Below, piece after piece: positions 19,401 through 22,400 of a stretch of DNA of 64,000 nucleotides. Numbering within the stretch: position 1 is the first letter of the stretch; each line of letters opens with the position of its first letter. The position numbers were made by a program. The stretch is from Escherichia coli (lineage in GTDB: Bacteria; Pseudomonadota; Gammaproteobacteria; Enterobacterales; Enterobacteriaceae), in assembly GCF_045037415.1 (NCBI RefSeq), contig NZ_CP173438.1; one strand, 5' to 3'.

Positions 19401-22400
19401 CTCTACCCTGGTGGCGCGTTTGAAGAAAGAGAATATCGATTTCGTTTACTACGGCGGTTATCACCCGGAAATGGGGCAAATCCTGCGTCAGGCACGCGCG
19501 GCAGGGCTGAAAACTCAGTTTATGGGGCCAGAAGGCGTGGCTAACGTCTCGCTGTCTAACATTGCGGGCGAATCAGCGGAAGGGCTGCTGGTGACCAAGC
19601 CGAAGAACTACGATCAGGTTCCGGCGAACAAACCGATTGTTGACGCGATCAAAGCGAAAAAACAGGACCCAAGCGGCGCGTTCGTCTGGACCACCTACGC
19701 CGCGCTGCAATCTTTGCAAGCGGGGCTGAATCAGTCTGACGATCCGGCGGAGATCGCTAAATACCTGAAAGCGAACTCGGTTGATACGGTGATGGGGCCG
19801 CTTAGCTGGGATGAGAAAGGCGATCTGAAAGGCTTTGAGTTCGGTGTGTTTGACTGGCACGCCAACGGCACGGCGACTGATGCGAAGTAACAGATAGATA
19901 AATGAAAATACCCGATGCGCTGAACTGCCATCGGGTTTTTTTATATTTATCGAAATGGTTGTAGAAAGATTGAACAATTCAGGATATGCTTATGTACGGT
20001 GATATGCCGTACATATTATACGGAGCAGGAGAGTTCACATGTCTGCTGTTAAAAAGCAGCGTATTGATCTGCGTTTAACTGACGATGACAAAAGTATGAT
20101 TGAGGAAGCGGCAGCGATATCTAATCAGTCCGTCAGCCAATTTATGTTGAACAGCGCTTCGCAGCGAGCTGCGGAAGTGATTGAACAGCATCGGCGGATG
20201 ATTCTCACTGAGGAATCCTGGACGCGGGTGATGGATGCGCTGAGTAATCCACCGTCACCAGGTGAAAAGCTAAAACGTGCGGCAAAACGTCTTCAGGGAA
20301 TGTAATACTTTATGGATGATCTGACGATAGAGATTCTGACCGATGATGCAGATTATGATCTACAGCGATTCGACTGCGGCGAGGAAGCATTAAATCTCTT
20401 TCTGACGACACATCTGGTTCGTCAACATCGCAATAAAATTCTGCGAGCGTATATCCTGTGTCGCAACACTCCAGAACGTCAGGTGCTGGGATATTACACA
20501 TTATCCGGCAGTTGTTTTGAACGAGCCGCACTGCCCTCGAAATCGAAACAGAAAAAAATTCCCTACAAAAATATTCCCAGCGTAACTCTTGGGCGTCTGG
20601 CAATTGATCGTTCATTACAGGGGCAGGGATGGGGAGCAACACTGGTTGCTCATGCCATGAAAGTTGTCTGGTCAGCCTCTTTAGCGGTAGGTATTCACGG
20701 TCTTTTTGTCGAGGCGCTGAATGAAAAAGCCCATACGTTTTATCAGTCGCTGGGCTTTATCCCATTGGTCGGAGAAAACGAAAATGCGTTATTTTTCCCG
20801 ACCAAATCTATAGAGCTACTTTTTACACCAGACGATTAACGCTTCTCCCAGCCACCCTGTTGTGCCGTAAATCCCAGTGCTCGCATAAACGCCGTCATCA
20901 CGCCGCGATCTTCCACGCCAGCATCCGCCATCCACCAACATGAAACGCCAGGATTGTTACGCAAAACCTCTTCCAGCAGATATTGCCCCACACCGCGACG
21001 TCGGGTTACTTCCCGCACGCGTAGAGAATCCAGTGCCCCCTCGGTGCCGCTTAAGGTTACCCGCACGGCAGCGAGCAGGCGCTCGTTAAAACGCGCGGCG
21101 TAGATGCGGTGGTTATCGTCAACCTGTAAAGAGGAAGGGGAATACTCCGGCCAGATCTTTTGCAGGTCAATCCGGTCCTGGTCGCTAAAGTTTTCTAATC
21201 GAATGATGGTCAGCTTCATGGGGAACCCGTGTAAATCACAAAAGTGGAACCAGTGTAGCGAAATAATTTAATCGGAGGCTTTCTCTTTTTTATTTCTTTT
21301 GGCAGGTGATTAATTTTTTTTCAGCAATAATTACAAAGTTAAAACATTAGAGAATGAAAAATATCCAGCATAATCCCCTAAATGGTAGTGAATTATTCTG
21401 CCCTTTGTACCGTTATTTTATGCTGACAACGGCGCTTTTTTCTGTTTATCTATCAATAAATTCAGAATATTATCTGTTCTTAATCGACTGAAAAATAGGG
21501 ATTTTAATCGCTATCATCACAAAATACTGCGCTAAACCCTTAATCAGACAGGTAAAAACAGTGCAGTATAAAAAAGAACAGTCTGATTTGTTAACACATA
21601 AGAACAAAGCAACACAACATCACGAATGGGGATTTTTGACTATGAAACGGAATGCGAAAACTATCATCGCAGGGATGATTGCACTGGCAATTTCACACAC
21701 CGCTATGGCTGACGATATTAAAGTCGCCGTTGTCGGCGCGATGTCCGGCCCGATTGCCCAGTGGGGCGATATGGAATTTAACGGCGCGCGTCAGGCAATT
21801 AAAGACATTAATGCCAAAGGGGGAATTAAGGGCGATAAACTGGTTGGCGTGGAATATGACGACGCCTGCGACCCGAAACAAGCCGTTGCGGTCGCCAACA
21901 AAATCGTTAACGACGGCATTAAATACGTTATTGGGCACTTGTGTTCCTCCTCTACCCAACCTGCATCAGATATCTATGAAGACGAAGGTATTCTGATGAT
22001 CTCGCCGGGAGCGACCAATCCGGAGCTGACCCAACGCGGTTATCAATACATCATGCGTACTGCCGGGCTGGACTCTTCCCAGGGGCCAACGGCGGCAAAA
22101 TACATTCTTGAGACGGTGAAGCCCCAGCGCATCGCCATCATTCACGACAAACAACAGTATGGCGAAGGGCTGGCACGTTCGGTGCAGGACGGGCTGAAAG
22201 CGGCTAACGCCAACGTCGTCTTCTTCGACGGCATTACCGCTGGAGAGAAAGATTTCTCCGCGCTGATCGCCCGCCTGAAAAAAGAAAACATCGACTTCGT
22301 TTACTACGGCGGTTACTACCCGGAAATGGGGCAGATGCTGCGCCAGGCCCGTTCCGTTGGCCTGAAAACCCAGTTTATGGGGCCGGAAGGTGTCGGTAAT

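Follow-up and report, generated by a model that had tools for sequence, protein, structure and literature searches.

A 64-kb stretch of an Escherichia coli contig (hereafter the window, whose numbering is used for all positions) carries between livJ and panZ (panM) a two-gene module that, judged by its position at the prototype's own locus and by the 98% identity of its products, is AtaR-AtaT proper, beyond a merely AtaRT-like pair. It is very probably a functional chromosomal type II toxin-antitoxin system in which the GNAT acetyltransferase AtaT and its antitoxin AtaR would work as they do in the E. coli O157:H7 prototype. The window itself shows the identity and locus of the pair, its intact frames, the conservation of residues and operator, and the purifying selection, while toxicity, tRNA targets, and regulation are carried over from the literature on the 98%-identical protein. 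The AtaR-AtaT pair is already known, its structure, targets, and regulation having been published since 2017, and RefSeq annotates it at its standard locus.

Identity and conservation of the AtaR-AtaT pair

A sequence search of the PDB matches the 175-residue protein to six AtaT chains (6GTS, 6AJM, 6AJN, 7CHD, 6GTQ, and 6GTP) with E values of 1e-112 to 6e-114, the best being 6GTS_A (E = 5.9e-114), and matches the 88-residue protein to AtaR (6AJM_C/6GTO/6GTS) with E = 1.2e-50. The next-best matches are KacT (5ZGN, 6.7e-75) and KacA (3.7e-38) of Klebsiella. Weaker matches with E = 1e-11 to 1e-21, for example the TacT entries 6G96, 5FVJ, and 7AK7, probably belong to the TacAT, ItaT, and AtaT2 systems. 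Pfam places GNAT domains across toxin residues 92–150 and assigns the antitoxin to TacA1/DUF1778 (3.6e-26); an NCBIfam scan, which holds no AtaT or AtaR model, returned only weak, sub-threshold GNAT and ribbon-helix-helix matches.

Alignment with O157:H7 strain TW14359, in which RefSeq places ataR and ataT between livJ and panM, gives 171 of 175 identical residues for AtaT (98%; C65S, K145Q, Q173P, and S174D in the window) and 86 of 88 for AtaR (98%; V54M and N57T in the window). The identical DNA in E. coli SK1144 is annotated by RefSeq as ataR (WP_001277107.1) and ataT (WP_000342452.1). An earlier note on this DNA had proposed a module of the AtaRT/TacAT kind, in which a GNAT toxin is paired with a ribbon-helix-helix antitoxin, and the PDB matches, the Pfam domains, and the 98% identity bear this out; alignment to GNAT toxins, the check it named, finds a similarity far above chance. 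The deposited AtaT chains differ among themselves at residue 117, which is N in 6AJM and 6AJN and K in 6GTS; K117 is also the residue of the window and of O157 TW14359.

O157:H7 has a second GNAT toxin, AtaT2, but its identity to AtaT is only ∼29% (PMC7470980), and it is therefore excluded as the gene at this locus. No sequence similarity between AtaT and PanZ is detectable by BLASTP, indicating that the two adjacent genes of GNAT fold are not a recent duplication.

Compared with known systems, the window pair agrees most fully with AtaR-AtaT of O157:H7 (PDB 6GTS, 6GTO, 6GTP-R, 6AJM, 6AJN, 7CHD), with which it shares protein lengths of 88 and 175 residues, the 6-bp gap, the livJ-panM locus, the overlapping stops, and the operator core. 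It likewise has the prototype's organization as an antitoxin-first two-gene operon with a palindromic operator. The differences from the prototype amount to a DNA identity of 96.3% and, within the operator, one differing inner position and one missing base at the outer edge. KacA-KacT of Klebsiella pneumoniae (PDB 5ZGN, 5XUN) has an identical operator core, and the same hexameric repressor model has been reported for it, but KacT is ∼70% identical to the window AtaT and kacAT lies at another chromosomal locus, between cusRS-like genes and a JmjC/RoxA-like gene. On sequence and locus the window pair is thus a close relative of KacAT and not the same system. The tRNA targets of KacT are stated as unknown in one paper, and PMC9431474 makes no mention of the genomic context of kacAT. 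TacA-TacT of Salmonella, ItaT of E. coli HS, and AtaT2 of O157:H7 belong to the same superfamily of GNAT toxins with ribbon-helix-helix antitoxins and share the chemistry of aminoacyl-tRNA acetylation, but they are distant in sequence and differ in locus and in tRNA specificity.

Both reading frames are intact and full length, and the ratios of nonsynonymous to synonymous divergence (dN/dS) between the window and four other alleles, 0.04–0.08 for ataT and 0.09–0.19 for ataR, indicate that both genes are under purifying selection. Residues of AtaT that contact the tRNA acceptor stem or are required for toxicity have been reported (F30, H34, R37, R40, N41, R71, S76, K77, S78, K79, K81, K82, P84, Y85, R95, and K165), together with those of the aminoacyl pocket (A26, L27, and L136), the acetyl-CoA (acetyl-coenzyme A) site (G108), and the catalytic Y144 (PMC7595197); every one of them is identical in the window and O157. 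In KacA, R8, D10, and R12 read the operator bases, and their mutation abolishes or weakens DNA binding (PMC6698736); all three are retained in the window AtaR.

In a multi-species alignment several of the differences from O157 turn out to be common among homologues. S65 of AtaT is missing from O157 alone among the homologues compared, Salmonella and KacT having it too, and Q145 is common to the other Escherichia sequences and Salmonella, KacT having L at that position. The wide occurrence of S65 and Q145 in other species indicates that C65 and K145 of the prototype are derived states. M54 of AtaR recurs only in E. albertii, E. whittamii, and KacA. Among the sequences compared, P173 and D174 of AtaT and T57 of AtaR are peculiar to the window allele. 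The AtaT crystallized in 6AJN comprises 172 residues, which suggests that folding does not require the last three.

If the window pair works as the prototype does, AtaT would be active as a homodimeric GNAT enzyme that acetylates aminoacyl-tRNAs, which would become unusable, so that translation would stop. The target was first reported to be Met-tRNAfMet only and later extended to Gly-, Trp-, Tyr-, and Phe-tRNA isoacceptors, with global inhibition of translation (PMC7595197). The C-terminal half of AtaR would bind AtaT and thereby block both its dimerization and its binding of acetyl-CoA. An AtaT-AtaR4-AtaT hexamer, through its N-terminal ribbon-helix-helix domains, would bind the palindrome at 19991–20015 and repress the operon, and excess toxin would release this repression, as reported: the hexamer represses the operon, and a higher toxin:antitoxin ratio lowers its affinity for the operator (PMC8138530, PMC6698736).

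Gene layout and control region

The features of the locus are collected in Table 1. The open reading frame (ORF) list agrees exactly with the lengths and the intergenic gap given by the earlier note, and the overlap of the toxin and panZ stops that it described is seen in the sequence: the ataT stop is the TAA at 20837–20839, and that of panZ is the reverse complement of the TTA at 20836–20838. Upstream lie rpoH (17662–18516) and livJ, which ends at 19890; livK and livH lie downstream.

Table 1. Positions of the ataR-ataT module, its control elements, and its convergent neighbor in the window.
Feature	Position	Strand	Description	Source
ataR	20039–20305	+	ATG start, 88 aa; ribbon-helix-helix (DUF1778/TacA1) antitoxin and repressor	ORF list
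ataR-ataT gap	20306–20311		6 bp	ORF list
ataT	20312–20839	+	ATG start, 175 aa; GNAT acetyltransferase toxin	ORF list
ataT/panZ stop overlap	20836–20839		TTAA	Read from sequence
panZ (panM)	20836–21219	-	Convergent neighbor; context, outside the module	
livJ-panZ spacer holding the module	19891–20835		945 bp	Three-way alignment of window, O157, and K-12
Hairpin with preceding A-run and following T-run	19893–19951	+	Likely livJ intrinsic terminator, possibly bidirectional	Function inferred
Putative weak sigma-70 promoter	19962–19990	+	-35 TAGAAA (19962–19967), 17-bp spacer, -10 TATGCT (19985–19990)	
Predicted operator	19991–20015		Perfect 9-bp inverted repeat TATGTACGG-N7-CCGTACATA, directly 3' of the putative -10	
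Shine-Dalgarno sequence	20027–20031	+	AGGAG, 7 nt 5' of the ataR ATG	Read from sequence

Upstream regions of the window, O157, E. albertii, E. whittamii, an allele encoding a 170-residue AtaT variant, Salmonella enterica subsp. salamae, and Klebsiella kacAT were aligned. The operator core GTACGG-N7-CCGTACAT shows no variation among the Escherichia, S. salamae, and Klebsiella kacAT sequences. At kacAT, the palindrome bound by the hexamer KacA4KacT2 extends across the transcription start, and the structure of AtaRT on DNA has the same arrangement (PMC6698736). A TAnnnT hexamer just 5' of the palindrome is kept in all seven upstream regions, and the Salmonella and Klebsiella sequences opposite TAGAAA are TTGAAA and TTGAGT, respectively; the elements TAGAAA and TATGCT are accordingly proposed as a weak -35 and -10. 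The transcription start is predicted to lie near 19997, within the palindrome. A scan of 19800–21400 for promoter and terminator consensus sequences found nothing at a promoter threshold of 9, because the putative promoter matches only 8 of the 12 consensus positions.

The same scan passed over the hairpin that follows livJ, perhaps, as a guess, because of its over-long loop. Its arms are inverted repeats that fold with -26.6 kcal/mol (z = -7.8 relative to shuffled sequences), and it is likely to be the livJ terminator, insulating ataRT from livJ. This hairpin belongs to the ataRT-type spacer; genomes with the K-12-type spacer end livJ with a repetitive extragenic palindromic (REP) element, and the 3' end of livJ therefore differs between the two states of the locus. 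Compared with the ribosome-binding site of ataR, the best purine-rich stretch for ataT lies 12 nt upstream of its start, a distance suggesting that translation of the toxin may be weaker or coupled.

Distribution and history of the livJ-panZ site

Megablast searches with positions 19891–20839 as the query were run against 5426 complete E. coli genomes. The ataRT segment is present in 1624 of them (∼30%), in one copy each, always on the chromosome and never on a plasmid, and in all rows listed the ataT/ataR annotation adjoins panM. Identity to the window allele is at least 99% in 566 genomes and 95–99% in another 1054, the latter including the O157:H7 genomes at 96.3%. K-12 MG1655, from which the earlier note had rightly believed the module to be missing, has no such genes between livJ and panZ; its 187-bp spacer carries a REP-like palindromic element and, in the three-way alignment, agrees with the window only over a few bases beside the panZ stop, being otherwise unrelated. 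At a coverage of at least 80%, 3749 of the 5426 genomes match the K-12-type spacer plus flanks. Taken together, the 1624 ataRT-type and 3749 K-12-type genomes make the site essentially two-state, holding either ataRT or the REP spacer. The possibility that K-12 retains a vestige of ataT was rejected, the 5–6 shared bases beyond the panZ stop (GACGA) being too short for a remnant.

Rare third states also occur. In isolate SC418 (locus L015, 2207–2695) a different DUF1778 gene (285 nt, ∼94 codons) is followed by an N-terminally truncated ataT pseudogene, and in ETEC6334 (locus L016, 1101–2449) an IS1397 element lies within a REP-type spacer.

The genes around the module are ∼96–98% identical to both K-12 and O157, and over its full 64 kb the window matches E. 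coli SK1144 at 99.99% identity. The suggestion that the module marks an O157-like or other non-K-12 background thus holds for its non-K-12 part, whereas an O157-like background is contradicted by the similar identity (∼96%) to both references and by the near-identity to SK1144.

A context scan with AtaT peptide patterns gave three close Escherichia loci, and more distant contexts were obtained by protein search and contig look-ups. The order livJ-ataR-ataT-panZ-livK is also found in E. albertii and E. whittamii, with the 170-residue AtaT variant, which the sources assign to several Escherichia species, and in S. enterica subsp. salamae, whose toxin is 77% identical. Where the neighbors were tabulated (O157, the 170-residue variant, and S. 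salamae), the last 4 nt of ataT overlap the end of panZ. The synonymous divergence (dS) of the window from O157 is 0.15 for ataT compared with 0.19 for livJ, 0.13 for panZ, and 0.13 for livK; the agreement of ataT with the flanking genes indicates that the module diverged together with its surroundings.

The description of the module as inserted between livJ and panZ, as the earlier note had put it, is therefore doubtful, since the module occupies the same site in E. albertii, E. whittamii, the carriers of the 170-residue variant, and S. salamae, and its dS matches that of the flanks. The most economical reading of these comparisons is that the module is ancestral at this site and that K-12-type lineages later lost it or had it replaced by the REP spacer, which is more likely than a recent insertion. 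The two-state polymorphism would then date back at least to the common ancestor of Escherichia and Salmonella, and as an old polymorphism the module should not be taken for a recent island or for a marker of enterohaemorrhagic E. coli (EHEC).

Relative to E. albertii, dS is 0.17 for ataT and 0.05 for ataR, compared with 0.28–0.38 for the flanks. The lower divergence of the module, calculated from few sites, may reflect exchange between species by recombination. The dS of ataR, calculated from just 3 synonymous differences, is ∼0.05 relative to O157 as well as to E. albertii, beside 0.15–0.17 for ataT and 0.13–0.38 for the flanks across the two comparisons; recombination or constraint on the mRNA could account for this low value. 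Related GNAT/DUF1778 pairs of ∼68% nucleotide identity occur in 570 plasmid records and in P1-like phage-plasmids, indicating that the wider family is mobile, though the livJ-panZ copy is not.

Alternative readings and significance

Several points weigh against a pair working exactly as the prototype does. The N57T change in AtaR alters a residue conserved in every other homologue compared, whose counterpart in KacA, at the start of helix alpha-C, forms a hydrogen bond with the toxin, and the C-terminus of AtaT reads PDD where the prototype has QSD. No promoter reached the threshold of the scan. In the literature, moreover, the tRNA specificity of AtaT was revised between 2017 and 2020, and the physiological role of AtaRT is unsettled. 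With regard to N57T, threonine, like asparagine, can cap the N-terminus of a helix, and no loss of function is expected from this substitution, threonine probably filling a similar capping role.

The substitution at this toxin-contact position could also be read as a sign that the module is a decaying or attenuated remnant, whose toxin or antitoxin has ceased to act like that of the prototype, the pair persisting as neutral cargo. Decay of the locus is indeed seen in some genomes, as the truncated pseudogene beside a different DUF1778 gene in SC418 illustrates, and the entire pair has been lost from ∼69% of E. coli genomes. Such a remnant is nevertheless very unlikely in the window, where both frames are full length, all tested catalytic and tRNA-binding residues are conserved, dN/dS is 0.04–0.19, threonine at position 57 would be able to cap the helix, and the allele recurs at 99% identity or more in 566 genomes. 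A different question is whether AtaT acts mainly on proteins, its chief cellular role being lysine acetylation and not the arrest of translation. One paper reports acetylation of EspB at lysine 206 by AtaT, which raises EHEC virulence (PMC7957018). That this is the main role is highly improbable, given that AtaT has been seen bound to tRNA and acetylates aminoacyl-tRNAs in vivo and in vitro (PMC7595197), that species and strains far removed from EHEC also keep the module, and that nothing in the 64-kb window bears on EspB.

The pair might instead serve chiefly in abortive infection against phages or as a stabilizer of its chromosomal region, and not in stress or persistence. The occurrence of the related pairs on plasmids and P1-like phage-plasmids makes an addiction role plausible for the family, but for the livJ-panZ copy abortive infection or stabilization as the chief role is extremely improbable: this copy is never found on a plasmid in the 5426 genomes, and the literature consulted gives no phage data for it. 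In a PADLOC scan neither AtaR nor AtaT matches any family model at E ≤ 0.01, which gives no support for a catalogued defense system. This alternative concerns the role of the pair and not its mechanism and is therefore compatible with a working ataR-ataT operon of the prototype kind. Among the Salmonella and Escherichia taxa the C-termini of AtaT vary while the tail-to-tail stop overlap with panZ stays. That the overlap represents a functional coupling, for example through convergent transcription, or that the changes found only in this allele alter neutralization, is a very doubtful proposition, and simple shared ancestry explains the conserved ataT-panZ arrangement equally well. The changes in question are N57T of AtaR and the PDD end of AtaT, which could affect the strength of neutralization. 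If the coupling were real, it would link a toxin that consumes acetyl-CoA to PanZ, a CoA-sensing regulator of pantothenate synthesis.

Other loci of the window differ from K-12 as well. Between gntU and yhgN, a RecQ-like helicase of 699 residues (40084–42183, +) and a DprA-like protein of 431 residues (42090–43385, +) are encoded with a 94-nt overlap; they score 1066 and 671 bits against the PADLOC models PsyrT and PsyrA, respectively, and so form a second toxin-antitoxin or defense pair in the window; in K-12 yhgN directly follows gntU. Between glgP and glpD (55077–58072, +), where K-12 has only the small yzgL, lie genes for a PstS-family substrate-binding protein of 505 residues and for hypothetical proteins of 255 and 201 residues, none of the three with a PADLOC match. 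At ∼61778–62565, between a glpR-like regulator gene and malT, only fragments of rtcR and rtcA are found and rtcB is missing; the fragments are partial pseudogenes in the annotation of the near-identical SK1144, and the rtcR-rtcBA locus is complete in K-12. The SK1144 annotation gives the glpR homologue as an intact coding sequence, and glpR of MG1655 is a pseudogene.

As a common natural allele of a published toxin-antitoxin system, the ataR-ataT pair of the window has little significance beyond its correct annotation. It does put the prototype in perspective: the crystallized AtaT of O157:H7 carries two derived residues, C65 and K145, whereas the window allele and other species keep S65 and Q145.

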